A stretch of DNA of 64,000 bases from an uncultured Candidatus Berkelbacteria bacterium (GTDB lineage: Bacteria > Patescibacteriota > UBA1384 > UBA12157). The position numbers and the translations under genes are program-made. Below, one piece after another: positions 4,919 through 49,649 of the stretch. The stretch's first letter is position 1. Every line of letters starts with the position of its first letter. The stretch covers positions 17,956 to 81,955 of the forward strand of contig CAIRFN010000005.1 of the NCBI GenBank assembly GCA_903877885.1, given 5' to 3'. The notes below the pieces were generated by a model. The model was not told the DNA's origin, did not search any database, and worked only from the letters and a program-made list of their open reading frames with translations.

Positions 4919-5139
4919 CTTTTAAATTATTTAAAAATTTACCGGCTCGAAAAAAGTTGATGGTTATTTCCAATTTCTTCTTGATTGGCATTTCACGGTA
5001 AATTTTATTTTGCATCTCTTGAACTTTGTTCATTTGATTTTAGTATAGCATAAAATTATAACCAAAAAGAACAGCCTTGCGACTGTTCTTTTAATATCTA
5101 TGATAGATTGCTTCGCCTGAGGGCTCGCAATGACTATTT

Positions 5140-7236
5140 TTATTCTACATCTTTCATACTTAAACTAACTCTACCTTTTTCTCGGTCGACTTCGACGACT
5201 TTGACTTTAACAATGTCGCCGACTTTAACCTTATCAGAAACTTTTTCAATTCTTTCGTTGGCAATTTGAGAAATATGAACCATACCGTCTTTGTTTGGCA
5301 GAATTTGCACAATAGCGCCAATCTCATTGCCGCGCATGCGGTCTTTCAAAATCTGAACGACTGGACCTTCAAAAACTTCACCGACTTTTGGTTCGCGCAT
5401 ACTGCCGGCAATAATTTCTTCGGCTTTTTTGGCCGCAGCCGCATCAGTCGAGGAAATCATGACCAAACCATCATCTTCGATATCGATGGAAATAATTTCA
5501 CCGCCGCCGCAATCTTCAATAATCTTGCGAATATTTTTGCCGCCTGGGCCGATTAATTCACCAATCTTTTCTGGTTCAATGCGAAGTGATGTAATTCGTG
5601 GCGCGTATGGTGATAGTTCCGCTCGAGGTTCGGCAATAACTTTTTCGATTTTAGCTAAAATAAAGTTAATACCTTCGCGAGCCTGAAGAGTCGCCTCTTC
5701 GAGCCATTCGACAGACAAACCTTTAAGTTTGGTGTCCATTTGACAGGCTGTAATACCATTTTTGGTTCCGGTTAATTTATAATCCATGTCGCCAGCAAAA
5801 TCTTCCAAACCTTGAATATCAGTCAAAACTTTATGTTTATCGCCTAATGTCATCAAACCCATAGCAATACCAGCCACTGGCGACTTAATCGGCACACCCG
5901 CATCCATCAAAGCCAAGGTTGAACCGCAAGTTGAAGCCATCGAGCTTGAACCGTTGGAGGCCAAAACTTCAGATACAACCCGAATCGTATATGGGAAATC
6001 TTCTTTAGACGGAATCACGGCAATCAAAGCTCGTTCGGCTAAAGCGCCATGACCAATTTCTCGGCGAGAAGTCCCGCGAATCGGTTTAACTTCGCCGGTA
6101 GAAAATGGTGGGAAATTATAGTGATGCATGTAGCGCTTAGTGCCTTCTTCTTCCATGGTTTCGATTGTTTGTTCTTCACCAGGAGCACCCAAAGTAACAA
6201 TACTCATAACCTGCGTTTGACCACGAGTAAATAAACCGGTGCCATGAGTTCGTGGCAACAAGCCAATTTCAATATCAATCGGACGAATTTCGTCTAATTT
6301 ACGGCCGTCAGGACGAATGCCTTTATCAACAATAGCGTGACGAACTTCTTTTTCCAATAAATCGGACAGAGTAGTTTTCAATTCCGATTGTTTGTAATCA
6401 CCTTCAAAATTTTTCAAAATATCAGCTTCAAAAGTCGCAATGTCATCATCGCGTTTGGCTTTGTCCATTTCAATCATCACATTGGCCAATTTGTCGCCCA
6501 AATATTTCTTAACATCAGCCACAATCGCCGCTTCACCTGGATCTTCGGTTGTGTGCTTGGTGTCGGCAATCAATTTCTTTTGAATTTCCAAACCTGGTTG
6601 TAACTCTTTTTGGCCAAATTCAATGGCTTTAATAAAATCGGCTTCGGTAACTTCTTTAGCACCAGCTTCCACCATCATGACCTTATCAGCCACACCGGCA
6701 ACAACTAAATCTAAAGTTGATAATTCCATTTCCGCTTCTGAAGGGTTGGCCACAAATTTGCCATCGATTAAACCAACGCGGACAGCCGAAACCGGGCCTT
6801 CAAAAGGCGCTGGGGTTTGGCTTAATGCCGCGGAGGCGGCAATAATAGCCAGAATGTCGGGATTATTTTCGCCATCATAAGATAAAACGGTGATAATCAC
6901 CTGAACATCATTACGATATTTTTTTGGAAATAGCGGTCGAATCGGTCGGTCAACCAAACGGCAAGTTAAAATTGCGCGTTCTGACGGGCGACCTTCGCGT
7001 TTGATAAATCGGCTGCCGGAAATTTTTCCGGCCGCATACAATCTTTCCTCGTAATCAACGAGTAACGGAAAATATTCCGCATCTTCTTTGGCTTTAGCTG
7101 AAACAACAGCAGTTGCCAAAACCACGGTATCGCCACAGCGAACCGTCACTGAACCAGACGCTAATTGCGCCAATTTACCAGTTTCGATGGACAATTGCTT
7201 GCCACCGAGCATGGTTGTGAAAACTTCACTTTTCAT
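5140..7236 (-). CDS. pnp: Polynucleotide phosphorylase (polyribonucleotide nucleotidyltransferase)
   Basis: 698 aa. Two RNase PH-like domains followed by C-terminal KH and S1 domains (..GPGGKNIRKI.., ..VGEVFEGPVVQILKD..). Confidence 0.95.
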   Translation of the reverse strand: MKSEVFTTMLGGKQLSIETGKLAQLASGSVTVRCGDTVVLATAVVSAKAKEDAEYFPLLVDYEERLYAAGKISGSRFIKREGRPSERAILTCRLVDRPIRPLFPKKYRNDVQVIITVLSYDGENNPDILAIIAASAALSQTPAPFEGPVSAVRVGLIDGKFVANPSEAEMELSTLDLVVAGVADKVMMVEAGAKEVTEADFIKAIEFGQKELQPGLEIQKKLIADTKHTTEDPGEAAIVADVKKYLGDKLANVMIEMDKAKRDDDIATFEADILKNFEGDYKQSELKTTLSDLLEKEVRHAIVDKGIRPDGRKLDEIRPIDIEIGLLPRTHGTGLFTRGQTQVMSIVTLGAPGEEQTIETMEEEGTKRYMHHYNFPPFSTGEVKPIRGTSRREIGHGALAERALIAVIPSKEDFPYTIRVVSEVLASNGSSSMASTCGSTLALMDAGVPIKSPVAGIAMGLMTLGDKHKVLTDIQGLEDFAGDMDYKLTGTKNGITACQMDTKLKGLSVEWLEEATLQAREGINFILAKIEKVIAEPRAELSPYAPRITSLRIEPEKIGELIGPGGKNIRKIIEDCGGGEIISIDIEDDGLVMISSTDAAAAKKAEEIIAGSMREPKVGEVFEGPVVQILKDRMRGNEIGAIVQILPNKDGMVHISQIANERIEKVSDKVKVGDIVKVKVVEVDREKGRVSLSMKDVE

Positions 7237-13145: not shown

Positions 13146-14177
13146 TTAACTCGCTAATTTAAGAACTAATAAGTCGAGGGCCACTTTTGGCTCAACCTGA
13201 CCGGTTTTCATCGCCAAATCGTTTTCCATTAATTCATGGTAGATTTTTTTCAGTTCTATCATATTGTAATTCTTAATTAAATTTAGGCTTTTACCGGCCA
13301 CAAACGGATGCAATCCAGCCCGTTTCGACAGCTCCCACTGCGAATTTACTCCGCGCTCGGCAAAATCCATCGTAATTAACAGGTTCCGATATTGATAAAC
13401 AATCATCGACAAAATATAGAGTTCATTTTCGCCATTATCTAAAAGTCGGTGTAATTCGTATAATGATTTTTTGACGTTTCGACTAGCGACCGCGTCAACC
13501 AGAGCAAAAATATCGCTGGAAGTTTGCGGTTTAACCAAGAGTTCGATATTTTGAACTGTAATAATATTGTCATCCTCGAGCCGGTGTGAGTCTTTATCGA
13601 ACACCGACATCGGGGATCCAGATCCCGGATCCTGAAGCCTTCCGGTCCGGGATGACAGACCTTTAAAAGTTGCAAGTTTGGCAATTTCATTTCCTAACCG
13701 CCACAAATCGGCGCCAACATATTCAAATAATTTTTGAACACCATCAGATGTAATCGTACCATTTAATTTAGCAACTTCTTCGCGAATCCAGGTTTTTGCA
13801 CCTTGTTCATCAAGCGGTTTAAATTCTTGGGTTTTTTGTTTAGCTAATTTTTTGTAAAGCGATGTCCGTTTATCTGGCACGCCTGCTTCAGCAAAAACCA
13901 AAACGGTTGTTTCCGGGACTTTCGGCAAAAATTCGCCGATTTTTTCTTGTTCATCCTTTTTTCCTTCTAACAACAAATTTTCAATAATCACCAGCCGACT
14001 TTTGGCTAAAAATGGATAGGCCAAAATCTGCCGAATCATAAAATCGGCTTTAGTCGTCTTGCCGTCAATCACCGCTAAATTTGTGTCCCCTAAAGACGCG
14101 GAAATATACTTTTCCTTCATCTCTTTAATTTTTTGTTTTAGTCTGTAAGTATCCTCGCCAAAAAGAAATAATATCAT
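13146..14177 (-). CDS. holA: DNA polymerase III delta subunit-like (HolA)
   Basis: 343 aa. N-terminus MILFLFGEDTYRLKQKIKEMKEKY and overall delta-subunit layout. It carries an in-frame family-A element at 13568-13657. Confidence 0.65.
   Translation of the reverse strand: MILFLFGEDTYRLKQKIKEMKEKYISASLGDTNLAVIDGKTTKADFMIRQILAYPFLAKSRLVIIENLLLEGKKDEQEKIGEFLPKVPETTVLVFAEAGVPDKRTSLYKKLAKQKTQEFKPLDEQGAKTWIREEVAKLNGTITSDGVQKLFEYVGADLWRLGNEIAKLATFKGLSSRTGRLQDPGSGSPMSVFDKDSHRLEDDNIITVQNIELLVKPQTSSDIFALVDAVASRNVKKSLYELHRLLDNGENELYILSMIVYQYRNLLITMDFAERGVNSQWELSKRAGLHPFVAGKSLNLIKNYNMIELKKIYHELMENDLAMKTGQVEPKVALDLLVLKLAS
13568..13657. repeat. Family-A MITE-like palindromic element (tgtcatcctcgag...gggatgaca) inserted in frame in holA
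   Basis: Termini tgtcatcctcgagccgg.. and ..ccggtccgggatgaca. Translated through as ..RLQDPGSGSPMSVFDKDSHRLEDDN.. Confidence 0.8.
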
Positions 14178-15735: not shown

Positions 15736-15826
15736 TGTCATCCTCGAGCCGGAGGGTACTCCGACATCAAGGATCCAGAAAATTCCTGGATCCCAGATCC
15801 TGAAGCCTTCCAATCTGGGATGACAT
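15736..15826. repeat. Family-A MITE-like element, intergenic copy
   Basis: tgtcatcctcgagccggagggtactccgacatcaaggatccag + aaaattc + ctggatcccagatcctgaagccttccaatctgggatgaca. Confidence 0.8.
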
Positions 15827-15831
15827 AAAAA

Positions 15832-16803
15832 TTAAAACAAGCTCAACCGATTATCTTCCCTATTAGATTTATGAATTCTGGGAATTAAGGATTTAAACCC
15901 GAGGTCTAAAAAGAGTTTTTCCACTTTTTCCTTATCAAAATCGTGAATTTTGGCATCTGATAATTTAAACTCGATCGGCGCATCTGAAACAATTTGTGAC
16001 AATTTTTGGCTTAAATATGCTTGATCTTTGTACTCAATTAATAAGGAAAGAACTTTTTTGGAAATTTTTAACTTTTCTGATAGTTTTTGAATTTTGTCAT
16101 CCTGAGCTTGCGAAGGAACTTTTTTAGATTCTTCACTACCGTTCAGAATGACATTATATAAATTATCAAGTGTTTGAAATTTCTCGATTAGATTGCTGGC
16201 CGTTTTTTCACCTATTCCTGGAACTCCGGGAATATTGTCCGAAGAGTCGCCTTTGAGCGCCTTTAGGTCAACAAATTGACTTGGATTAACATTATACCGC
16301 TCTTTGACTTTATTCTCATCGTACATGACCGCTTGCTGGACACCGCGCGCCATCGAATAAACCTTTGTACTCTGATCAATCAGCTGAAAAGTATCCGAGT
16401 CACCTGTCACAATAATGTTTTCAATTCCACTATCTTCTATCCCCTTTATTATCGTTGCGGCAATATCTTCGCCTTCATATCCTTCGGCCGAAACAATCGG
16501 AATATTCATGGTCTCCAACACTTTTTTGCAATATTGAATTTGCGGCACCAAATCATCAGGCATCGGTTTGCGCGTCGCTTTGTAATCAACATATTCCAAG
16601 TGCCGTTTGGTTGGTTTGGGTAAATCAAAACAAGCCACCAAGTATTCAGGTTGGAGTTCTTTAATGGCAGCAAGTAAAGCCGAGGCAAAACCATAGGCCG
16701 CGTTAATCGGATGACCATCGCGCGTCAAAGTCGGCGGAATACCATAGAATGCCCTAAAAATTAAAGCAAACGAATCAATTAAAACCAAACGATTTTTTAT
16801 CAT
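15832..16803 (-). CDS. 5'-3' exonuclease (Pol I N-terminal-type / FEN-like)
   Basis: 323 aa. N-terminus MIKNRLVLIDSFALIFRAFYGIP with the acidic metal-binding clusters typical of 5'-nuclease domains. It carries an in-frame family-B element. Confidence 0.85.
   Translation of the reverse strand: MIKNRLVLIDSFALIFRAFYGIPPTLTRDGHPINAAYGFASALLAAIKELQPEYLVACFDLPKPTKRHLEYVDYKATRKPMPDDLVPQIQYCKKVLETMNIPIVSAEGYEGEDIAATIIKGIEDSGIENIIVTGDSDTFQLIDQSTKVYSMARGVQQAVMYDENKVKERYNVNPSQFVDLKALKGDSSDNIPGVPGIGEKTASNLIEKFQTLDNLYNVILNGSEESKKVPSQAQDDKIQKLSEKLKISKKVLSLLIEYKDQAYLSQKLSQIVSDAPIEFKLSDAKIHDFDKEKVEKLFLDLGFKSLIPRIHKSNREDNRLSLF
16095..16153. repeat. Family-B palindromic element (tgtcatcctgagc...gttcagaatgaca) in frame in the 5'-exonuclease gene
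   Basis: tgtcatcctgagcttgcgaaggaacttttttagattcttcactaccgttcagaatgaca. Translated as ..PSQAQDDKIQ.. Confidence 0.8.
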
Positions 16804-19258: not shown

Positions 19259-20217
19259 TTCCTTCTCATCTTCTCGATAAACTTAAATAAATTATACCAG
19301 CATTTGCTGTAAATAATATCCCAACTTCCGACTGTTTGGTATTTGATGCCGCCAAATTGCTCTTTAAATTGAGTGATACCGGCGTATTTATGTTTTTTGT
19401 CATTCTGAGCTTGCGAAGAATCTATAGATCCTTCACTGCGTTCAGGATGACTATTAAATGGCGCTACTGCTAATAAATCATAAAACTTGCAACCTTTGGC
19501 TTTGGCGATTTTAATCGCCTCCCAGTGCATTAGGTATGGTGCCATTACATTGCGATATTTTGATAAGCTTGCTCCATAAAGATAAGTCGCCATTTCGTCA
19601 AAAAAAGTAAAAATTCCAGCCGCCACGGGAATATCATTATATTTAACAACCAAAAGTTCAACGGAATTTATTTCTTTTAAGGTTTGAATTAATTTAGCAA
19701 AATATTTTTTTGGTCTGATTTGAAAACCATCTCGGCTAGCCGTTTCCTTAAAAATTTCGTAAAATTCGTCAATATTTTGTGATTTTTCAACAACTAAACC
19801 ATGTTTTTGCCCTACTTTAATATTATATCGGCCTTTTGGTTTCATTTTGGCCAAAATTTCTTCTTCAGATTTTGTTATATCCACAATTTGACGATATTCT
19901 GGCTGAATCTCTTCAAACGATTTAATGAGATGATTTTTCTTCAAAATTGTTGTAATTTTTCCACCAAAAACCGAGTTTTTTTGATTCAAAAAATCTAACC
20001 TTAAAAATATCGAGTGGGATTTTTTAGAAATTTCTTTAATTTTTGGTAAAAATTTGGGGAAATTGATTTTGTAAAAATCGACTTCCGGCGAGTACAGAAA
20101 ACTAAAACCCAGTGGTAATGGTTTTTCCAAAACTAAAACCTCATCAACCCAATGGGCTTTCCAACCTTGACTTTCGCGAAGCGCAGCCCATTCCTTTGTT
20201 TGTAGAATTGATTTCAT
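19255..20217 (-). CDS. FemAB-family peptidoglycan interpeptide aminoacyltransferase (FemX-like)
   Basis: 320 aa. N-terminus MKSILQTKEWAALRESQGW and overall Fem-family layout. It overlaps murE by 4 nt. It carries an in-frame family-B element. Confidence 0.65.
   Translation of the reverse strand: MKSILQTKEWAALRESQGWKAHWVDEVLVLEKPLPLGFSFLYSPEVDFYKINFPKFLPKIKEISKKSHSIFLRLDFLNQKNSVFGGKITTILKKNHLIKSFEEIQPEYRQIVDITKSEEEILAKMKPKGRYNIKVGQKHGLVVEKSQNIDEFYEIFKETASRDGFQIRPKKYFAKLIQTLKEINSVELLVVKYNDIPVAAGIFTFFDEMATYLYGASLSKYRNVMAPYLMHWEAIKIAKAKGCKFYDLLAVAPFNSHPERSEGSIDSSQAQNDKKHKYAGITQFKEQFGGIKYQTVGSWDIIYSKCWYNLFKFIEKMRRK
19398..19452. repeat. Family-B palindromic element in frame in the femX-like gene
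   Basis: tgtcattctgagcttgcgaagaatctatagatccttcactgcgttcaggatgac. Translated as ..HPERSEGSIDSSQAQND.. Confidence 0.8.
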
Positions 20218-20246: not shown

Positions 20247-21482
20247 ATGATGAAAGAAAAAATGAAAATATTAGCCATTGAATCAAGTTGTGACGAAACC
20301 GCGGCCGCCGTTATTGAAAATAATAACGGTGAGATTAAGATACATTCAAACATAATTTCTAGTCAAATTGATATTCACAAACAATTTGGTGGCGTTTTTC
20401 CCGAAATTGCTTCGCGTGCTCATGCCGAAAATATTATTCCGGTGATTAAAGAATCTTTAATTAATAGTATTGATGATGTCGATCTAATCGCTGTCACTGA
20501 CGGACCAGGTTTAATCGGTTCGCTTTTGGTTGGCGTCAATGTAGCCAAAACCTTGAGTTTCGCAAATAATATTCCGATCTTACCAATCAACCACTGGCTT
20601 GGTCATATCTATTCCTGTTTTACCGATGATAAAAATTTACCTCGATTCCCTCTTCTCGCCCTTATTGTTTCCGGTGGTCATACTGGTTTGGTGTTGATGA
20701 AAAGTCATACCGAGTACATTCAAATCGGCGCTACACTTGATGACGCCGCTGGCGAAGCTTTTGATAAAGTAGCAAAACTCTTAGAATTAGGTTATCCTGG
20801 CGGACCGGCGATTTCAGCTGCGGCTGAAGAATATAAAAAAGAATGTCATTCCGGTCCAGATGGTAATACTGGAACCGGAATCCAGGCCTGGATTCCCGAT
20901 GTCGAGTTGCCACTCGGCTCGAGAATGACAATTTCCTTTCCGAGAGCCATGCTTAATTCTAAAGATTATAATTTAATGTCAATTAAATTTCCGCGGGCCA
21001 TGATGCAATCAGGGAACTATAATTTCTCATTTTCAGGGTTAAAAACTTCTGTACTAAACAAAGTTCGAACTTTAACTGAAAATTGGAAATTGAGAACTGA
21101 AAATTTTGCCCCCGTAGTTGCCTATGAATTTCAACAATGCGTCATTGATATTTTAATTGGTAAAACTTTGAAAGCGGCTGAAGAATTTAAGCCAAAATCA
21201 ATTCTTCTTTGCGGCGGCGTTTCAGCAAATAAGGAATTAAGAGAACAAATGAAAAAAGCTATTTTGTCATTCCGGACCCCTCCTGTCATTCCGGACCGGT
21301 TGGCAACAGGATCCGGAATCCAGGAAAAAACGAATGACAAGATTAATTTTTTCTGTCCGCCCATCGAATTAACCGGCGATAACGCGGCCATGATCGGTAT
21401 TGCCGCAGCCTATCAAATCAACGCTGGCGTTAAACCAACTACATATAATAATGTAAATGCGAACTCAAATTTGAAATTGTAA
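20247..21482 (+). CDS. tsaD: tRNA N6-adenosine threonylcarbamoyltransferase TsaD (Kae1/Gcp family)
   Basis: (M)KILAIESSCDETAAAVIEN.. N-terminus with the His metal site. At 411 aa it is longer than typical, because of two in-frame element insertions plus a 17-codon tandem duplication. An alternative start exists at the ATG at 20262. Confidence 0.9.
   Translation: MMKEKMKILAIESSCDETAAAVIENNNGEIKIHSNIISSQIDIHKQFGGVFPEIASRAHAENIIPVIKESLINSIDDVDLIAVTDGPGLIGSLLVGVNVAKTLSFANNIPILPINHWLGHIYSCFTDDKNLPRFPLLALIVSGGHTGLVLMKSHTEYIQIGATLDDAAGEAFDKVAKLLELGYPGGPAISAAAEEYKKECHSGPDGNTGTGIQAWIPDVELPLGSRMTISFPRAMLNSKDYNLMSIKFPRAMMQSGNYNFSFSGLKTSVLNKVRTLTENWKLRTENFAPVVAYEFQQCVIDILIGKTLKAAEEFKPKSILLCGGVSANKELREQMKKAILSFRTPPVIPDRLATGSGIQEKTNDKINFFCPPIELTGDNAAMIGIAAAYQINAGVKPTTYNNVNANSNLKL
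20844..20930. repeat. Family-A MITE-like element in frame in tsaD (copy 1)
   Basis: tgtcattccggtccagatggtaatactggaaccggaatccag gc ctggattcccgatgtcgagttgccactcggctcgagaatgaca. Translated as ..CHSGPDGNTGTGIQAWIPDVELPLGSRMT.. Confidence 0.8.
21263..21340. repeat. Family-A MITE-like element in frame in tsaD (copy 2, with a duplicated left terminus)
   Basis: ttgtcattccggacccctcc tgtcattccggaccggttggcaacaggatccggaatccag gaaaaaacgaatgacaa. Translated as ..ILSFRTPPVIPDRLATGSGIQEKTNDK.. Confidence 0.75.
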
Positions 21483-21888: not shown

Positions 21889-24039
21889 ATGCAAGAATTA
21901 CCATCAAATTACAATTATAAAGAAACTGAAGACAAAATTTATGCGCTGTGGGAAGAAGCCGGCGCGTTTAAACCAGTTATTGATCCTAATCAAAAACCAT
22001 ATACGATTGTGATTCCGCCACCAAATGTGACTGGTTCTCTTCATATGGGTCATGCTTTAAATAACACAATTCAAGATATTTTAATTCGTCGCTCTCGGAT
22101 GCGTGGCGTGCCAACTCTATGGATTCCCGGAACTGATCATGCCGGTATTGCTACTCAAAATGTGGTGGAAAAAAAGTTGGCTAAAGAAGGCAAAACTCGT
22201 CAAGAACTTGGGCGCGAAGAGTTCACCAAAGAAGTTTGGGATTGGGTTGATCAATATGGCAACACTATTATTGGACAGCTCAAGAAAATGGGTTGTTCTT
22301 GCGATTGGTCCAGACAGCGTTTTACCATGGATGAAGGCTATTCAGAAGCGGTTAAAGTCGCGTTCAAAAATTACTATGATAAGGGTTATATTTATCAAGG
22401 TGAACGAGTGATCAACTGGTGTACCCGTTGTCAAACTGCCTTATCTGATATCGAAGTCGAACATATTGATCAAAACGCTAAACTATATTTTTTTAAATAT
22501 GATAAAAATTTTCCGATCACCATTGCCACTACGCGACCAGAGACAAAGCTTGGCGATACAGGTGTAGCGGTCAATCCGAAAGACAAAAGATATCAGGATT
22601 ACATTGGTAAAACTTTCAAGGTTAATTTTTGCGGTGTCGACCGCGAGATTCGGGTTTTTGCTGACATTAGTATTGATATAACCTTTGGCACTGGCGCCGT
22701 CGGAGTCACTCCAGCGCATTCTTTGGTTGACTATGAAATGGCCGAAAAAAATGGCTTGGATATTATTAAAGTGATTGATCAATATGGGAAAATGACCAAA
22801 GAAGCGGGAACAGAATTTGAAGGTTTGAAAGCAACTGAAGCGCAAGCCAAAGTCATCGAAATGTTGGAAAAAGCTGGGCTGATGGAAAAAGTGGAAGAAA
22901 TCCAAAACGCGATCAGTGTGTGTTATCGCTGTAATCGACCGATTGAGCCTCAACCGTCAAAACAATGGTTTTTAAAGATGTCGGAATTAGCAAAACCAGC
23001 GATTGAAGCGGTTAAATCTGGTCAAATTAAATTCACACCAGACCGTTGGACCAAAGTTTATTTAGACTGGATGGAAAATTTGCGCGACTGGTGCATTTCT
23101 CGCCAAATCTGGTGGGGGCACACCATTCCAATTGAAGGCGAAACTGATGTTTTGGACACTTGGTTTTCGTCAGCCTTGTGGCCGTTTGCCACACTTGGTT
23201 GGCCCAATAAAACTGAAGACCTAAAATATTTTTATCCGACCACCACACTTTCCACTGCCCGCGATATTATTTATCTGTGGGTGGCACGAATGATTTTTTC
23301 AGGGCTTGAATTTACCAACGAAATTCCATTTTCACAGGTTTATATTCATCCAACGGTTTTCAATAAAGAAGGTAAACGCATGTCCAAATCTTTGGGCACC
23401 GGCGTCGATCCTTTGGAACTGATCGAGAAATACGGTGCCGATGCCACGCGATTTGGTCTTACCTATATTAATACCGGGATTCAAGATTTGAAATTTGACG
23501 AAGAAGCTATTGGTGCTGGCAAAAAATTTGCCAATAAGTTGTGGAATATCACCAGATTCATGTTGATGAGCATTTGTCATTCCGGTCCGGATGGCTCCGG
23601 AACCGGAATCCAGGAAAATGATAATCTGGATTCCAGATCAGGTTGCCAACCAGTCTGGAATGACAAGATGGAACCAAGAACTGAAGCCGATAAAATCATT
23701 CTTGAAAAACTTAATGCCGTTATTAAATCAACTGACAAAAATCTTGATGAATTTAAATTTGGCCAAGCGGCGCATGATTTGTATGATTTCGTCTGGCACG
23801 ATTTGGCCGACGTATATATAGAAGAAAGCAAAGTGACCGCGAACGGTCATCCCGAGCCGAAGTCCGGCGAGGGAACCCCTGATTTTTCAGTATTACTTTA
23901 TGTAATAGTAACTTCGATTAAACTTTTGCACCCGATTATGCCGTTTGTAACAGAAGAAATCTGGCAAAAACTCTACGAAGATAAATTAGTTGATGAAAGA
24001 ATGCTGATTACGGCAAAATGGCCAAAAGCACAAGAATAG
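21889..24039 (+). CDS. valS: Valyl-tRNA synthetase (compact form)
   Basis: PPPNVTGSLHMGHAL HIGH region, KMSKS (GKRMSKSLG) and anticodon-binding region. Carries an in-frame family-A element at 23575-23665. Confidence 0.9.
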   Translation: MQELPSNYNYKETEDKIYALWEEAGAFKPVIDPNQKPYTIVIPPPNVTGSLHMGHALNNTIQDILIRRSRMRGVPTLWIPGTDHAGIATQNVVEKKLAKEGKTRQELGREEFTKEVWDWVDQYGNTIIGQLKKMGCSCDWSRQRFTMDEGYSEAVKVAFKNYYDKGYIYQGERVINWCTRCQTALSDIEVEHIDQNAKLYFFKYDKNFPITIATTRPETKLGDTGVAVNPKDKRYQDYIGKTFKVNFCGVDREIRVFADISIDITFGTGAVGVTPAHSLVDYEMAEKNGLDIIKVIDQYGKMTKEAGTEFEGLKATEAQAKVIEMLEKAGLMEKVEEIQNAISVCYRCNRPIEPQPSKQWFLKMSELAKPAIEAVKSGQIKFTPDRWTKVYLDWMENLRDWCISRQIWWGHTIPIEGETDVLDTWFSSALWPFATLGWPNKTEDLKYFYPTTTLSTARDIIYLWVARMIFSGLEFTNEIPFSQVYIHPTVFNKEGKRMSKSLGTGVDPLELIEKYGADATRFGLTYINTGIQDLKFDEEAIGAGKKFANKLWNITRFMLMSICHSGPDGSGTGIQENDNLDSRSGCQPVWNDKMEPRTEADKIILEKLNAVIKSTDKNLDEFKFGQAAHDLYDFVWHDLADVYIEESKVTANGHPEPKSGEGTPDFSVLLYVIVTSIKLLHPIMPFVTEEIWQKLYEDKLVDERMLITAKWPKAQE
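23575..23665. repeat. Family-A MITE-like element in frame in valS
   Basis: tgtcattccggtccggatggctccggaaccggaatccag...ctggattccagatcaggttgccaaccagtctggaatgaca. Translated as ..CHSGPDGSGTGIQENDNLDSRSGCQPVWNDK.. Confidence 0.8.
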
Positions 24040-24049
24040 ATAAATTTTG

Positions 24050-24068
24050 AAATTCGAATTTTGAATTT
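24050..24068. repeat. Outer 19-bp inverted repeat, left arm (aaattcgaattttgaattt)
   Basis: Its reverse complement is identical to 24481-24499. Lies within gaaattc-type short tandem repeats. Confidence 0.75.
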
Positions 24069-24074
24069 TTTCTT

Positions 24075-24451
24075 TGTCATTCCAGACCGGCCGGAGGCAG
24101 GATCTGGAATCCAGAATAAAATGAATAATTATTATGTGTATATTTTGACTAGCAGAAGAAACGGCACTTTATATATTGGCGTAACTAATGATCTGATTAA
24201 AAGAATATGGGAACATAAAAACCATAGTAAAAAAGGATTTACAGAAAAATATAACATTTGCCAATTGATATACTTTGAGCAAACTAATAATATAAACTCC
24301 GCTATTAATAGAGAAAAACAATTAAAATCATGGAATAGAAAATGGAAACTTGACTTAATTGAGAAAGTCAATCCTGATTGGAAAGATTTATATCAAGAAT
24401 TGTTGTAACTGGATTCCCGATGTCGGATGCCATCCGACTCGAGAATGACAA
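24075..24451 (+). mobile_element. Full-length family-A element carrying a GIY-YIG nuclease ORF between its two terminal modules
   Basis: Left module tgtcattccagaccggccggaggcaggatctggaatccag (24075-24114). ORF 24121-24408. Right module ctggattcccgatgtcggatgccatccgactcgagaatgaca (24410-24451). The short MITE copies (e.g. 38811-38904) are these two modules joined directly. Confidence 0.75.
24121..24408 (+). CDS. GIY-YIG nuclease family protein (UPF0213/YhbQ-like, about 95 aa)
   Basis: ..YYVYILTSRRNGTLYIGVTNDLIKRIWEHKN.. with the GIY...YIG motifs. The start is trimmed to the ATG at 24121. The track frame is open from 24061 through the left terminal module. Confidence 0.85.
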   Translation: MNNYYVYILTSRRNGTLYIGVTNDLIKRIWEHKNHSKKGFTEKYNICQLIYFEQTNNINSAINREKQLKSWNRKWKLDLIEKVNPDWKDLYQELL

Positions 24452-24480
24452 TTGGATAATTAAAAATTGATTCGAAATTC

Positions 24481-24499
24481 GAAATTCAAAATTCGAATT
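24481..24499. repeat. Outer 19-bp inverted repeat, right arm (aaattcaaaattcgaattt)
   Basis: Exact reverse complement of 24050-24068. Confidence 0.75.
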
Positions 24500-24514
24500 T
24501 AATTGAAAGTTACT

Positions 24515-32296: not shown

Positions 32297-32311
32297 AAAT
32301 ACTTAAAAATA

Positions 32312-32348
32312 GATTCCGGATCCTGTCGCCAACCGGTCCGGAATGACA
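32312..32348. repeat. Family-A solo half-module
   Basis: gattccggatcctgtcgccaaccggtccggaatgaca. Confidence 0.65.
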
Positions 32349-38810: not shown

Positions 38811-38904
38811 TGTCATTCCAGACCGGACGGCGTCAGGATCTGGAATCTAGGATAATTGTTTCTGGATTCCCGATGTCGGATTGCCATCCGACTCGGGAAT
38901 GACA
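38811..38904. repeat. Family-A MITE-like element, intergenic reference copy
   Basis: tgtcattccagaccggacggcgtcaggatctggaatctag gataattgttt ctggattcccgatgtcggattgccatccgactcgggaatgaca. The whole element is a long imperfect palindrome. Confidence 0.85.
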
Positions 38905-38921
38905 AAGAAAAATATAACAAA

Positions 38922-40070
38922 TTATTTATTAACTTCTTTCTTCAGTTCTTCCACTTTATCCGTTCTCTCCCAAGGTAAATCTAATTCTGGTCTACCGAAA
39001 TGGCCATAGGCGGCAATTTTTTGGTAGATTGGTTTTCGAAGATCTAAGGCTTGGATAATCATCCCTGGTCGTAAATCAAAAACTTTACTCACCGCTTGAG
39101 CGATTTTATCGTCTTCAATGGTGCCAGTACCAAACGTATCAATTCGCACCGACATTGGTTCAGCTCGACCGATGGCATAAGCAATCTGCACTTCACAGCG
39201 TTCGGCTAATTTTGCGGCAACGATATTCTTGGCCACCCATCTGGCCGCATAGCTACCCGACCGATCAACTTTACTCGGATCTTTTCCAGAGAAACAACCG
39301 CCACCGTGACGCGCATAGCCACCATAAGTATCAACAATAATTTTGCGGCCGGTCAGTCCAGTATCACCTTGCGGCCCACCAATCACAAACCGACCGGTGG
39401 TGTTGACATAGTAGTTTGTATTTTGAAGCAAGGATTTAGGGATAACTTTTTCAATTACTTTCTCGATAATTTCTTTTTTTAAGATCGATGTTTTAATATT
39501 TTCATCATGTTGTGCCGCAATTAAAACCGATTCGATGCGGACTGGTTTGTCGCCATCATATTCAACTGTAACCTGGCTTTTGCCGTCTGGTCGCAAGCCT
39601 TTGACAATCCCCTTTTTTCGAACTTCAGCCAAGCGTTGGCAAAGTTTGTGAGCCAAAACAATTGGCAAAGGCATTAATTCTTTGGTTTCGCGACAAGCAT
39701 AACCAAACATCAAACCTTGATCACCGGCGCCTAGATTTTCCAAGTCTTCGACCAAAGGACAGTCCTTTTGTTCCTTTAAGGACTGTCCTTTACTAAACGC
39801 ATCAACACCCTGTGCAATATCGGCTGATTGTTCCTTAACCGCCACCATTACACCGGAAGTTTCCCAGTGAAAACCATATTCGGCATTTGTATAGCCAATT
39901 TGTTTAATGACGTTGCGAGCGATTTTCGGAATATCGACATATGTTTTAGTGGTAATTTCTCCAGCGATAATACAAACGCCGTTGGTCAGCAATGTTTCGC
40001 AAGCGACTCGTCCTTGCGGATCGTCAGTTAAAATTGCATCGAGTACCGCATCACTAATCTGATCAGCCAT
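38922..40070 (-). CDS. metK: S-adenosylmethionine synthetase
   Basis: [35 protein letters not shown] and the rest of the canonical MetK sequence. Carries an in-frame REP-like insertion at 39765-39800 (..[17 protein letters not shown]..). Confidence 0.95.
39765..39800. repeat. REP-like palindromic element inserted in frame inside metK
   Basis: aaggacagtcctt-ttgttccttt-aaggactgtcctt. It adds about 12-16 residues relative to the conserved MetK loop before GAGDQG. Confidence 0.8.
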
Positions 40071-40183
40071 TTTGTCAAGGATGCCCTTCAGTAACAGATT
40101 CTGATGTAAAGAATTTATTCATAGGACTATCTCCTTTCTAGAGCATAAAGCTTCCTCATATTTTTTATATTTATCTAATTTTT

Positions 40184-40277
40184 TGTCATTCCAGACCGGA
40201 TGGCATCAGGATCTGGAATCCAGAGTTAATTATTTCTGGATTCTTGATGTCGGAGTACCCTCCGGCTCGAGAATGAC
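40184..40277. repeat. Family-A MITE-like element in the metK 5' leader, between the riboswitch terminator and the start codon
   Basis: tgtcattccagaccggatggcatcaggatctggaatccag...ctggattcttgatgtcggagtaccctccggctcgagaatgaca. Confidence 0.8.
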
Positions 40278-40292
40278 ATAAAAAAACAAAAA

Positions 40293-40412
40293 TCACCGCA
40301 AGCGGTGAAATATATAAAAACATCTTTCCCGCAAGGGGTCGGAGGTAGCACCTAAATTAATGGGTTGCTGGTGGATCATCGGGCCGAATCCCTCACCACA
40401 CTCTTGATATTA
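40293..40412 (-). ncRNA. SAM-I (S-box) riboswitch with an intrinsic terminator, upstream of metK
   Basis: Minus-strand read: AUCAAGAGUGUGGUGAGGGAUUCGGCCCGAUGAUCCACCAGCAACC...GGUGCUACCUCCGAC. This matches the conserved SAM-I core AGAGnGGnGGAGGGAnnGGCCCGAUGAnnCCnnGCAACC...GGUGCUA. It is followed by a terminator tcaccgcttgcggtga plus a T-run at 40280-40308. Confidence 0.8.
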
Positions 40413-40528
40413 AAATTAATTTTTAACTAAATTTATCATATTATAACCATCTAACTTTTGTCAAACTCTTGCCTGGAAACAATTTTTGCTTTAAGATGTA
40501 AATATTAAATTTATATTTTAGGAGCAAA

Positions 40529-43614: not shown

Positions 43615-45129
43615 ATGAGTAATTACAACATTGTTGAAGAACTAAAAAAAGAGATTATGGATTTTGACACTAACGCCAAAGAAGAATCTGCTGGCGAAGT
43701 AGCCGAAATCGGTGACGGTATTGCTAAAATTTACGGCCTTCGTGATGCCAAAAACGGCGAACTTCTAACCATTCATACTTCCACCTCCGAGGTGGCCGCA
43801 ATGGTTTTAAACCTTGAAGAAACCACTATCGGCGCCATTATTTTGGGCGATTACAAAAAAATTCAAGCTGGTGATAAAGTCAGTACCACCGGAAATGTGG
43901 CTGAAATTCCTGTTTCCGAGGAAATTATCGGTCGTGTCGTTGATCCACTCGGCGTTCCACTTGATGGCAAGGCTGATATCAAAGCTGTTAAATCAATGCC
44001 AATCGAAAAAGTCGCGCCTGGCGTTATTACTCGACTGGGCGTTTCTGTGCCGCTTCAAACCGGTATTAAAGCAATTGATGCTCTGATTCCGATTGGTCGC
44101 GGTCAACGCGAACTCATTATTGGCGATCGCGGCACAGGGAAAACCGCCATCGCCATTGATACTATTATTAACCAAAAAAATCTGCCAAAAGAAAACAGAC
44201 CGATTTGTATTTATGTGGCTATTGGTCAAAAGAAATCCAAAGTTGCCCGCATCGCCGCGATTTTGGAAGAACACGGCGCCATGGAATACACCACCATTGT
44301 TTTGGCCGGCGCTTCAGATCCAGCGCCGCTATCTTACATTGCCCCATATTCTGGTTGCGCTATTGGCGAATATTTTATGGAACAAGGCAAAGATGTTTTG
44401 ATTGTTTTTGATGATTTAACCAAGCACGCTTGGGCTTATCGCCAAGTTTCTTTGTTACTTCGCCGCCCACCAGGTCGCGAAGCTTATCCAGGCGATGTTT
44501 TCTATCTCCACTCTCGATTATTGGAACGCTCTGCTCGTTTAAACAAAGATTTTGGCGGCGGCTCAATGACAGCTTTACCAATCATCGAAACCCAAGCGGG
44601 CGATGTTTCCGCTTATATTCCAACCAATGTTATTTCCATTACCGACGGCCAGATTTTCTTGGAATCCGATCTTTTTTACCAAGGTATTCGACCAGCTTTA
44701 AACATCGGTATATCGGTATCACGTGTCGGCGGCGCCGCTCAAATTAAAGCGATGAAAAAAGTCGCGGGAAAATTAAAATTGGAAATGGCTCAATATCGTG
44801 AACTGGCAGCTTTCGCTCAATTTGCATCAGATTTGGATGCCGATACCAAAAAAACCATTGAGCGTGGCAAACGCATGACCGAGGTGATGAAACAGCCACA
44901 ATATCAACCAATGCCAGTCGAAGAACAAGTGGTGATTTTGTACGCGGTTTCCAACGGTTATTTGGATGGTTATGATGTTACTGAAATTCAAGATATTGCC
45001 AAGGAATTGACCATCAAAGCCCAAAGCGAGGGCAAAGCCATTTTAGCCGAAATCCGCGAAAAATCAGTTATTGACGAAGCCTTAGAAGCCAAACTAAAAT
45101 CGTTTTTAGAAAAAAATACGAAAAAATAA
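43615..45129 (+). CDS. atpA: F0F1 ATP synthase subunit alpha
   Basis: GDRGTGKT Walker A plus the complete conserved alpha-subunit sequence. Confidence 0.95.
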
Positions 45130-45136
45130 TTTTAAA

Positions 45137-45527
45137 TGTCATCCTCGAGCCGGTTTGAGCTTTGTCGAAAACCGACATCAAGGATCCATCAAAATAAAAA
45201 GCTATTTCGTTTACATTTTAGCCAGTCAGAAAAACGGAACATTATATATCGGTGTTACAAATGATATTATAAGAAGGATTTGGGAGCACAAAAATAAAGC
45301 TATTCAAGGTTTTACAGATAAATATAGAATTGATAAATTAGTTTATTTCGAAGAAACACCAGATATTAATTCAGCTATTAAGAGAGAAAAACAATTAAAA
45401 TTATGGAGCCGTTCCTGGAAAATAGATTTGATAGAAAAGAATAATCCTGATTGGAAAGATTTATATCAAGATTTGTTATAATGGATCCTTGATGTTGGAG
45501 CGCTTCGCTTCCAACTCGAGGATGACA
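45137..45527 (+). mobile_element. Second full-length family-A element carrying a GIY-YIG ORF between its terminal modules, inserted between atpA and atpG
   Basis: Left module tgtcatcctcgagccggtttgagctttgtcgaaaaccgacatcaaggatcca. ORF to 45481. Right module tggatccttgatgttggagcgcttcgcttccaactcgaggatgaca. Confidence 0.75.
45155..45481 (+). CDS. GIY-YIG nuclease family protein (second copy)
   Basis: ..YFVYILASQKNGTLYIGVTNDIIRRIWEHKN..REKQLKLWSRSWK.. The frame is open from a TTG inside the left terminal module. There is no ATG near the conserved N-terminus, so the start is uncertain. Confidence 0.75.
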   Translation: MSFVENRHQGSIKIKSYFVYILASQKNGTLYIGVTNDIIRRIWEHKNKAIQGFTDKYRIDKLVYFEETPDINSAIKREKQLKLWSRSWKIDLIEKNNPDWKDLYQDLL

Positions 45528-45548: not shown

Positions 45549-45611
45549 ATGTCATTCTCGAGCCGAATGGTAATTCGACCTGCCTGACGGCAGGCAGGCA
45601 TCAAGAATCCA
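45549..45611. repeat. Family-A solo module with an embedded 20-nt palindrome (cctgcctgacggcaggcagg)
   Basis: tgtcattctcgagccgaatggtaattcgacctgcctgacggcaggcaggcatcaagaatccaa. Confidence 0.7.
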
Positions 45612-45617
45612 ACTGTA

Positions 45618-45659
45618 TGTCATTCTCGAGTCGGATGGGATCCGACATCAAGAATCCAG
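45618..45659. repeat. Family-A solo module, tandem direct copy
   Basis: tgtcattctcgagtcggatgggatccgacatcaagaatccag. Confidence 0.7.
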
Positions 45660-46025: not shown

Positions 46026-47066
46026 ATGCCAAGTACACAAGAATTTCGTAGAAGAATTAAATCGGTCAGTTCGACCAAACAGATTACCAAAGCAATGGAA
46101 ATGATTGCTTCTATTAAGATGCAAAAATCTGTCAAAACTATTGCCCAGGCTCGAGCCTATATCCAAAACGCATGGAATATTTTACATTTACTGTCTGAAA
46201 AAATATTAAGCGACGATCACGCGCTGATTAATCCTAAAGATCATGCCAAAAAAACAGCCGTGATTTTAATTACTTCTGACCGCGGTTTATGCGGTTCATA
46301 TAATTCAGAAGTGATCAAGAAGCTAACATCATTCAAAAATGTCATCCTCGAGACGGAGGGTACTCCGACATCAAGGATCCAGGACCTGGATTCCAGATCT
46401 GGTTCCCAACCAGTCTGGAATGACAATACGATTGATATCATTGCCATCGGTAAAGTCGGCGCCGCGTTTGTTAACAGATATAAAATCGGCAAACTGATCG
46501 CTGAATTTAAAGGTTTTGAAAATAATATTTCCGTTGAAGATGTCATTCCGATTTCCAAACTGACGAATGGTGAATATATGGCTGGAAATTATGACAAAGT
46601 GGTAGTGATTTATTCTCATTTCATTTCTTCGCTTAAACAAGTCCCGGTCGTCAAACAAATTTTGCCAATTGTCGAAGATCATATCGATCATCCGGAATTA
46701 TGGGAAGGAAATAATGTCATCCTCGAGCCGGAGGGTACTCCGACATCAAGGATCCAGGACCTGGATTCCCGATCCGGAGGCCATCCGGTCGAGAATGACA
46801 AAAACAATACTGAATACAAATTTGAACCCAATCCTGATGAAGTTTTTGATGGCGTCTTGCGACAAATTTTACGCACCCAAATTTTCGGTGCCATTTTAGA
46901 AGCCAACGCTTCTGAACATTCGGCCCGTATGGTGGCCATGAAAAATGCCACCGACAATGCCACCGATTTAGTTGATGAATTAAAATTAGTATATAACAGC
47001 ATCCGCCAAGGAAACATCACTTCGGAAATCGCCGAAATTAGTGGTGCCGCCGAGGCGATGAAATAA
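46026..47066 (+). CDS. atpG: F0F1 ATP synthase subunit gamma (lengthened by two in-frame MITE insertions)
   Basis: Conserved N-terminus (..RRRIKSVSSTKQITKAMEMIASIKMQK..) and C-terminus (..NSIRQGNITSEIAEISGAAEAM). At 346 aa it is longer than typical. Confidence 0.9.
   Translation: MPSTQEFRRRIKSVSSTKQITKAMEMIASIKMQKSVKTIAQARAYIQNAWNILHLLSEKILSDDHALINPKDHAKKTAVILITSDRGLCGSYNSEVIKKLTSFKNVILETEGTPTSRIQDLDSRSGSQPVWNDNTIDIIAIGKVGAAFVNRYKIGKLIAEFKGFENNISVEDVIPISKLTNGEYMAGNYDKVVVIYSHFISSLKQVPVVKQILPIVEDHIDHPELWEGNNVILEPEGTPTSRIQDLDSRSGGHPVENDKNNTEYKFEPNPDEVFDGVLRQILRTQIFGAILEANASEHSARMVAMKNATDNATDLVDELKLVYNSIRQGNITSEIAEISGAAEAMK
46340..46425. repeat. Family-A MITE-like element in frame in atpG (copy 1)
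   Basis: tgtcatcctcgagacggagggtactccgacatcaaggatccag gac ctggattccagatctggttcccaaccagtctggaatgaca. Translated as ..VILETEGTPTSRIQDLDSRSGSQPVWND.. Confidence 0.8.
46715..46800. repeat. Family-A MITE-like element in frame in atpG (copy 2)
   Basis: tgtcatcctcgagccggagggtactccgacatcaaggatccag gac ctggattcccgatccggaggccatccggtcgagaatgaca. Translated as ..VILEPEGTPTSRIQDLDSRSGGHPVEND.. Confidence 0.8.
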
Positions 47067-47077
47067 CAGGAGTATAA

Positions 47078-48500
<1,423 letters not shown>

Positions 48501-49124: not shown

Positions 49125-49170
49125 TGTCATCCTGAGCGTAGCGAAGGATCTATCATAACGCGTCGCAAGC
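49125..49170. repeat. Family-B element, degenerate or truncated copy
   Basis: tgtcatcctgagcgtagcgaaggatctatcataacgcgtcgcaagc. Left terminus is intact; the right terminus is missing. Confidence 0.55.
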
Positions 49171-49558: not shown

Positions 49559-49649
49559 TGTCATTCTCGACCGGACGGCCTCCGGATCGGGAATCTAGAA
49601 ATATAATCCTGGATCCCAGATCCTGTTTGACAACCGGTCTGGGATGACA
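49559..49649. repeat. Family-A MITE-like element, intergenic
   Basis: tgtcattctcgaccggacggcctccggatcgggaatctag...cctggatcccagatcctgtttgacaaccggtctgggatgaca. Confidence 0.8.

Follow-up and report, generated by a model that had tools for sequence, protein, structure and literature searches.

We analysed a 64,000-nt stretch of DNA (hereafter the window, to which all coordinates refer) from a Berkelbacteria-like host of the candidate phyla radiation (CPR), and concentrated on a small nuclease gene, ssn1, that lies between two inverted hairpin modules immediately downstream of valS. L- and P-numbers denote the related loci and proteins that were compared. The valS gene ends at 24039 and is followed by an AT-rich stretch and then by the left module of the gene-bearing unit (unit 1), as stated in a preliminary description of this DNA. 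The arrangement given there, a GIY-YIG open reading frame (ORF) between a left and an inverted right module, is also correct, with the refinement that the range 24075-24451 is the whole unit and that the ORF occupies 24121-24408. The left module lies 6 nt from the start of ssn1, and the cargo of unit 1 consists of these 6 nt and the ORF only. A GIY-YIG domain (Pfam PF01541, E 1e-14) is the sole domain of the encoded protein and spans it. The window sequence is reproduced in independent assemblies, namely seven contigs from other samples that are 99.98-100% identical; strain-level polymorphism was sought in these contigs and, at this identity, none was useful.

A second unit (unit 2, 45137-45527) is located in the ATP synthase operon between atpA (43615-45129) and atpG (46026-47066), which confirms a second full-length copy at this position. 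The ssn1 and ssn2 genes share 71% protein identity and 75% DNA identity, including an identical stretch of 29 nt. In its start region (45188-45200), ssn2 has ATA where P0125, a relative of at least 90% identity from the same 90% cluster, has ATG (MKNYY...). Gene callers start ssn2 at TTG 45155, inside the loop of the left hairpin, which yields 108 aa. The ssn2 gene may be inactive or decaying, or may be initiated at this TTG within the hairpin. A 1764-nt contig from ENA sample ERZ1426628 contains the exact 81-aa ORF of the window and the atpG side of the ssn2 slot, and its GIY-YIG gene (P0001) is 99% identical to ssn1, the single difference, E93D, being the ssn2 residue. Either recombination placed a copy of ssn1 sequence in the ssn2 slot, or the contig is an assembly chimera formed via the common 29-nt stretch. 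We do not count this contig as evidence, because an assembler could switch within that stretch.

Whether a system of this kind had been described was left open in the preliminary description. It was published by Chenal et al. in 2025 as Ssn/SRM, and the Discussion of that paper notes that NTS-ssnA-NTS looks insertion-sequence-like and parallels REP/RAYT, presenting no evidence of movement (PMC11893778). The Ssn family comprises single-domain GIY-YIG proteins of ~94 aa (CDD cd10448); the Neisseria NTS is CGTCATTCCCGCGMAVGCGGGAATCYRG, an oriented extension of the dRS3 repeat, and its relatives in other phyla are the Ssn-related motifs, or SRMs (PMC11893778). SsnA binds the hairpin only as single-stranded DNA (ssDNA) and cuts a few nucleotides upstream; the trinucleotide that precedes the palindrome is important for cutting, and no base contributes more to binding than the C that directly follows the palindrome (PMC11893778). 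Ssn is encoded by 81% of genomes with >200 SRMs (PMC11893778).

A protein counts as a family member if BLASTP aligns it to Neisseria SsnA at E < 1e-10 with >=75% coverage (PMC11893778). Our reference was the N. gonorrhoeae SsnA ortholog (L168:589-873, 94 aa), which is flanked by canonical NTS; its source is two 2.17-Mb N. gonorrhoeae chromosomes (NZ_CP119140.1, NZ_CP119142.1) that are filed as plasmids in PLSDB. The ssn1 protein aligned gap-free to this reference over 90/94 residues (54% identity, E 5e-38) and the ssn2 protein gap-free over 90 residues (56% identity, E 1e-39), placing both within the published limits. At the positions of the published catalytic residues Y6, Y17 and E64, the window proteins have Y7, Y18 and E65, and all of 23 aligned homologs keep these residues unchanged. 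The nearest solved structures, the UPF0213 proteins 1zg2 and 1ywl, match weakly (E 1e-4).

The published SRM pattern, HGTCWYN(0-2)YYVSBRHN(0-5)WNVSBRGN(0-2)RNCYNB, is expected at least once on each flank of the gene, at a distance of <=500 bp (PMC11893778). It has 0 matches in the whole window, and by this pattern neither gene is flanked, since it does not accommodate stems as long as those found here. The functional signature is present on both sides of both units: the stem has an ATTCC/GGAAT base and is directly preceded by GTC and followed by C. On the strength of the SsnA match and this signature, we therefore assign the locus to Ssn/SRM, as a member with a long-stem hairpin variant, and it is very probably an SRM-ssn-SRM unit in which an Ssn-family nuclease gene lies between two inverted copies of its predicted cognate hairpin. 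Long-stem SRMs that escape the published search pattern are possibly new. Since the pattern misses such variants, the spread of the family in CPR genomes is probably undercounted.

All modules are built as TGTC, stem-loop, CCAG. The 5' TGTC and the C directly after the stem are present in all 29 aligned modules. Eight stem-base pairs are nearly always complementary in these modules (Watson-Crick or G-T at pairs 0-4, 6 and 7), and compensatory changes are seen at pair 2 (C-G in 10, T-A in 19), pair 4, pair 5 and pair 7. We distinguish five subtypes: A (40 nt) and its variant A', B (42-43 nt, plus long-loop forms of up to 63 nt), B' (40 nt) and the short C (28-30 nt). Three of the four unit-flanking modules fold alone as ssDNA (z -3.0 to -4.2), including the left (-10.1 kcal/mol, z -3.0) and right (-11.0 kcal/mol, z -4.2) modules of unit 1, the exception being the left module of unit 2, whose fold is unremarkable (z -1.1). 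An Rfam scan of the window at gathering thresholds returned a SAM (S-adenosylmethionine) riboswitch only and no family for the hairpins. We counted 25 copies of the terminal motif TGTCATYCYVGR in the window compared to 0.13 expected from shuffles, an enrichment of ~190-fold, which, together with the identical sequence in independent assemblies, rules out chance or artefact as the source of the repeats.

The units in related genomes

Homologs of the ssn proteins number in the thousands and are 55-76% identical across Patescibacteria, Proteobacteria, Planctomycetes, Chloroflexi, Ignavibacteria, Nitrospirae and other phyla. We applied a strict detector (GTC, a perfect stem of >=6 bp, and C) to 80 homolog loci. 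Inverted hairpins flanked the gene on both sides at 39 of the 80 and a hairpin was adjacent on at least one side at 61, with a hairpin density of 0.52 per kb against 0.10 in shuffled sequence; the association of gene and repeat thus holds across phyla. On the same loci, the published pattern found hairpins on both sides at 21 and on at least one side at 43. In the published survey, 42% of homolog genes have SRMs on both sides (PMC11893778).

The stems vary from genome to genome and the hairpin form is kept, mostly as an upstream hairpin with its inverse downstream (upstream, 20 plus and 5 minus; downstream, 19 minus and 5 plus). Beside ssn genes of many phyla, inverted pairs of neighbouring hairpins outnumber tandem pairs by 82 to 9. 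Some homologs have miscalled N- and C-terminal extensions (MSFPRKRESR, CHSRESGNPE, DWIPAFAGMT and DWIPDQVGND) which are translated hairpins of the form GTCATTCC-stem-GGAATCC. Searches of phages and plasmids gave no close mobile-element context, the phage matches being distant GIY-YIG genes of 33-35% identity.

We compared empty and filled sites in related genomes that are 66-83% identical in neighbouring proteins. In L083 and L084, the TPR gene that follows ssn1 in the window comes almost directly after valS, and ssn is absent; in L081 the spacer between the two genes is AT-rich and lacks ssn, and in L085 a different gene is found there. At the second locus, the spacer from atpA to the 81-aa ORF is 24 nt long in L169, as against 584 nt in the window. 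Conversely, L171 has an ssn gene (67% identical to ssn2) between atpG and atpD, with a near-identical long-loop left module, in a slot that holds no ssn unit in the window or in L169. By alignment, the hairpin-gene-hairpin unit is thus an insertion relative to its relatives and occupies different slots in related genomes, including different slots of one conserved operon. The insertion boundaries and any target duplications are not nucleotide-exact, because the empty-site genomes are too diverged. No target-site duplication was visible at 25 termini or in the comparisons of empty and filled sites, where, given the divergence of the genomes, duplications of 1-2 nt could escape. The ssn-free spacer of L081, the closest relative (5120-5140), ...aaaattATGACAttgggaattgattg, aligns with the right junction in the window, ...gagaATGACAattggataattaaaaattgattcg; the ATGACA, which is the end of a module, may be the remnant of a lost element.

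Unit 1 had also been described as bracketed by a perfect 19-bp inverted repeat belonging to the element. The repeat is indeed perfect over 19 nt, with the right arm one base further along (24482-24500), and 12 of the 19 nt in each arm are a self-palindrome, AAATTCGAATTT, that is confined to this locus within the window. Its place in the element probably does not hold, since relatives carry the flanks (24040-24074 and 24452-24502 in the window) without ssn or around another gene. In L081, the flanks align at the same locus without ssn; in L169 (4422-4545) they occur without cargo in the spacer between atpG and atpD; and in L085 (5119-5595), again at the same locus, they bracket a gene for a 23S rRNA-intervening-sequence protein (PF05635, E 9.5e-14). 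Unit 2 has no such outer repeat. With moderate confidence, as the alignments are short and of low complexity, we regard the outer repeat as neighbouring or target sequence that is not part of the Ssn unit. These flanks may represent a separate insertion hot spot or small-cargo site.

Doublets across the window and within genes

Module sites number 17 in the window: the two ssn units, nine long tail-to-tail doublets, two C+C doublets, one composite, and three single or tandem sites (Table 1). Six of the nine long doublets pair A (or A') with B, the pair type that flanks ssn1. The claim that the ~90-bp copies are the modules of unit 1 joined by a few bases holds for the doublet at 38811-38904, which has the same module types and is 82% identical to the joined unit 1 flanks, bearing out the homology of the ORF flanks with the termini of the short repeats. 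This doublet (z -4.7) is predicted to fold as two separate hairpins and not as one long hairpin. Compared as wholes, the doublets have 69-88% identity among themselves and with the joined ssn flanks, and single modules can be identical at separate loci, for example at 15736 and 46715. A recent burst of doublets was considered and rejected, as no whole-doublet identity exceeds 88%.

Table 1 Hairpin modules, ssn genes and flanking repeats in the window
Feature	Position	Strand	Remarks
Left SRM hairpin module, unit 1, type A	24075..24114	+	tgtcattccagaccggccggaggcaggatctggaatccag; TGTC, interrupted ~13-bp stem, CCAG; 40 nt
ssn1, 95-aa single-domain GIY-YIG nuclease of the Ssn family	24121..24408	+	intact ATG
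Right SRM hairpin module, unit 1, type B, inverted	24409..24450	-	42 nt; directly abuts TAA stop of ssn1
Left SRM module, unit 2, type B with long loop	45137..45189	+	holds TTG 45155, the only in-frame start of ssn2
ssn2, second Ssn-family ORF, 96 aa	45191..45481	+	Pfam PF01541, E 1.4e-16
Right SRM module, unit 2, type B long loop, inverted	45481..45527	-	ssDNA fold z -3.5
Two tandem single SRM modules 3' of unit 2	45550..45659 (45550-45612, 45618-45659)	+	
SRM doublet B-long + A	13568..13657		in frame in holA (DNA polymerase III delta)
SRM doublet B + A	15736..15825		intergenic, between convergent genes
Short SRM doublet C + C	16095..16153		in frame in 5'-3' exonuclease gene
Short SRM doublet C + C	19398..19452		in frame in FemAB-family gene
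SRM doublet A' + B	20844..20930		in frame in tsaD; Pfam TsaD match breaks at residue 197
Composite: truncated module 5' part, full type A, truncated right end	21265..21339		in tsaD
SRM doublet A' + A	23575..23665		in frame in valS; orthologs in L081, L084 and L085 without doublet
Single type A SRM module	32309..32348	-	intergenic
SRM doublet A + B	38811..38904		same module pair as unit 1; 11-nt spacer
SRM doublet A + B	40184..40278		metK leader, just after SAM riboswitch terminator
SRM doublet B + A	46340..46425		in frame in atpG, site 1
SRM doublet B + B'	46715..46800		in frame in atpG, site 2
Single short type C SRM module	49125..49153	+	directly after atpC stop codon
SRM doublet B' + A	49559..49649		intergenic
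Outer inverted repeat, left arm, 19 nt	24050..24068		AT-rich flank; similar flank in L081, L085 and L169
Outer inverted repeat, right arm, 19 nt	24482..24500		aligns with L169 atpG-atpD spacer and L085 sequence downstream of valS

Eight of the 17 elements lie in frame within six intact ORFs (two each in tsaD and atpG; one each in holA, valS, the 5'-3' exonuclease gene and the FemAB-family gene), each adding ~18-30 residues. By comparison, only 2% of NTS are inside genes in N. meningitidis (PMC11893778). Pfam and PDB alignments are interrupted exactly at the insertion positions, and solved gamma subunits lack anything that corresponds to AtpG residues 103-133 and 219-258. Relatives differ at these positions. 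The ValRS site is empty in L081, L084 and L085 and is occupied by other hairpin families in L082, L083 and L086, while AtpG site 2 is empty in the five closest aligned relatives, holds a related doublet in P0128, and holds unrelated hairpin families in P0132 and P0140. These alignments indicate that doublets are gained and lost between relatives, including in frame inside essential genes, where they appear to be tolerated. A further stretch within valS (23838-23880), ggtcatcccgagccgaagtccggcgagggaacccctg (peptide GHPEPKSGEGTP), has the appearance of a lone hairpin module that has decayed.

Rickettsia palindromic elements, short palindromes that sit in frame in essential genes and are tolerated as extra peptide, are the nearest known parallel. 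The likeness to the window modules lies in the insertion habit, and we know of no mobilising enzyme assigned to these elements. Rickettsia is among the genomes with >300 SRMs (PMC11893778). A search of the literature collection used here found no paper on in-frame palindromic insertions in CPR bacteria, and the eight hairpin elements in frame in six housekeeping genes are possibly new. For annotation, the repeats inflate or distort gene calls: proteins are given spurious extensions at the N- or C-terminus, and housekeeping proteins contain additional peptide segments.

Proposed mechanism of spread and its alternatives

On a more far-reaching reading, SRM-ssn-SRM units would be mobile, driven by a GIY-YIG ssDNA nuclease, and would spread by nick-induced recombination as a non-HUH counterpart of REPIN-RAYT or IS200/IS605, with their non-autonomous hairpin doublets in CPR bacteria colonising essential genes in frame (those of ValRS, TsaD, ATP synthase gamma and DNA polymerase III delta). 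We assign this reading a probability of roughly 0.4. By homology with the Neisseria and Wolbachia enzymes, Ssn would bind the hairpin only as ssDNA, with the 3' C serving binding and the 5' GTC serving cutting. The predicted nick is a few nucleotides 5' of GTC, which in the L(+)-gene-R(-) arrangement would put one nick shortly beyond each end of the unit, the two being on opposite strands. Hairpins that are extruded or single-stranded may be nicked in this manner, after which hairpin copies would recombine with each other during repair or undergo gene conversion. Spread would then be homing-like or RAYT-like, not classical cut-and-paste, and we infer this to be the most likely mechanism.

Several points weigh against the explanation of the locus as an SRM-ssn-SRM unit that spreads in this way. 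The GIY-YIG protein had been proposed as the mobiliser of the whole repeat family, and the presence, absence or relocation of the whole unit among relatives agrees with this proposal; the idea is already in print and unproven, and Ssn as the cause of movement does not follow from presence and absence. Recognition of the long-stem hairpins by Ssn is an extrapolation, and the flanks of unit 1 are two unlike module types (A and B), which is awkward for one enzyme with one hairpin. At 19 of the 80 homolog loci, the strict detector found no adjacent hairpin. The NTS flanking the N. gonorrhoeae gene point GTC-inward, opposite to those of the window and most other phyla, and ssn2 is without a canonical start codon.

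The preliminary description had proposed that the ~90-bp doublets are internally deleted miniature inverted-repeat transposable elements (MITEs) of an autonomous element. Read as a classical transposon, this element would have the GIY-YIG protein as its transposase, and the non-autonomous doublets would be moved whole by it. Two parts of this proposal stand, the shared termini and, on comparative evidence, the mobility of the unit. The ORF takes exactly the place that a short spacer takes in the doublets, with the same A and B modules on either side, and the unit 1 composition is that of most long doublets. In addition, the spacer of the valS doublet, gaaaatgataat, resembles the cargo start, aaaatgaataat (shuffle p ~0.012 before correction for seven tests). 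However, none of the other spacers tested is significantly like the cargo ends, and the doublets are mosaics (A'+A, B+B', B'+A, C+C) that differ as wholes, yet share single modules of up to 100% identity across loci. Single and tandem modules occur too, and a target-site duplication was seen at no copy. GIY-YIG enzymes in general are hydrolytic nucleases and, to our knowledge, have no joining activity. The characterised Ssn enzymes are hydrolytic endonucleases that act only on ssDNA, with no joining or strand-transfer activity reported (PMC11893778). We consider a transposase with deleted derivatives to be quite improbable. A free-standing gene for a homing-type endonuclease, aimed at hairpin doublets that already exist, would account for the minimal cargo with its stop codon abutting the right module. 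Here, a nicked doublet would be repaired from a gene-containing copy, the hairpins serving as homology arms, and the gene would invade doublets instead of giving rise to them. The modules around ssn1 are those of the doublet type seen most often, relatives show the unit in different doublet-prone intergenic slots, and inverted doublets are common beside ssn genes. The ERZ1426628 contig, with an ssn1-like gene in the ssn2 slot and an ssn2-type C-terminal residue, would fit as well, but is possibly a chimera and is not counted. Homing, though, normally destroys the recognition site and here both hairpins remain, arms of ~40 nt are short, and among the compared genomes no orthologous site has a bare doublet in one genome and an ssn unit in another. 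We consider this explanation unlikely.

A domesticated host system without present mobility, in which the hairpins are Ssn sites that restrict or shape ssDNA recombination and the ssn-adjacent hairpins are regulatory or incidental, is somewhat unlikely in our estimation. N. meningitidis SsnA lowers transformation by NTS-containing DNA, which is the sole cellular role and only function experimentally shown for the family (PMC11893778). The age and divergence of the window doublets, the strong conservation of the protein across phyla and the possible decay of ssn2 are in keeping with domestication. Against it, the positions of units and doublets differ between related genomes, the in-frame insertions in essential genes look like tolerated parasitism, and the proportion of elements within genes is far from that of N. 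meningitidis.

Comparison with known systems places the window closest to Neisseria Ssn/NTS, with which it shares a single-domain GIY-YIG protein of ~95 aa (54-56% identity), the GTC/C hairpin signature, inverted hairpins on both sides of the gene, and many extra genomic copies. The window hairpins are longer than NTS (38-63 nt, with interrupted 13-17-bp stems), are mostly arranged as tail-to-tail doublets of two unlike subtypes, lie in frame in genes in about half of cases, and point GTC-outward. The host is a CPR bacterium, a group absent from the main text of the published survey (PMC11893778). The window thus adds to the known system a CPR member, long-stem hairpins, comparative evidence of unit movement, and frequent in-frame insertions in housekeeping genes. 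For a system described so recently, and suggested to have a mobile-element origin, the window and its relatives form a compact natural test case, and the two diverged Ssn paralogs alongside at least three hairpin subtypes are useful for questions of specificity.

REP/BIME-RAYT systems are similar in having one small gene between inverted dispersed hairpins, inverted doublets, mosaic arrays, ssDNA hairpin recognition, a short conserved 5' motif and no target-site duplications, and the tail-to-tail doublets resemble REP/BIME or Neisseria dRS3/NIME arrays. However, RAYT is a HUH Y1 transposase with a covalent intermediate whereas the window gene encodes a hydrolytic GIY-YIG nuclease, and a REPIN is one long hairpin whereas the window doublets are heterotypic. 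IS200/IS605 elements also have subterminal ssDNA hairpins, no classical terminal inverted repeats and no target duplication, but both of their hairpins lie on one strand, and cutting as well as rejoining is done by TnpA, in contrast to the inverted window hairpins and an enzyme without known joining activity. The GIY-YIG homing endonucleases (I-TevI, phage Seg) share the catalytic domain, the small selfish-looking genes and the variable presence. Their substrate is double-stranded DNA, they carry an extra DNA-binding domain at the C-terminus, and their genes reside in introns or between conserved genes of phages, whereas Ssn is single-domain and ssDNA-specific. Consistent with this difference, the window proteins score 25.4 and 21.0 bits against TIGR01453 (group I intron endonuclease; cut-off 56), and the protein ends with the nuclease domain.

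Additional features near the elements

The Rfam hit in the window is a SAM-I riboswitch (RF00162, 57.6 bits) at 40293-40413 on the minus strand, and the doublet in the metK leader lies directly after the T-tract of its terminator; the doublet is therefore transcribed whenever the riboswitch reads through. At the 5' end of metK (40060-40130, minus strand), the conserved MetK N-terminus is encoded from an ATG at ~40122 and stops after 15 codons; a different frame takes up the long ORF at 40070. The break has the look of a +1 frameshift from an additional T in catccttgac, which may be genuine or may be a sequencing error.

In several genomes, truncated hairpin ends are found in tandem beside full hairpins (for example, cccgaggatgacaaaataaataa four times at L175 150-280, and gaatgaca three times at L173 1040-1110), and truncated module ends likewise occur in the window at 21265-21283 and 21331-21339. 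Repeated rounds of cutting and repair close to where Ssn is predicted to cut may have left these ends behind as scars. In the window (47079-47105), the 5' end of atpD is duplicated as a 27-nt copy 31 nt upstream of the real atpD start, and L171 has a copy of the atpG 5' end (449-483) upstream of the real atpG start. These duplicated gene starts, which stand beside insertion-prone spacers, may also be repair scars.

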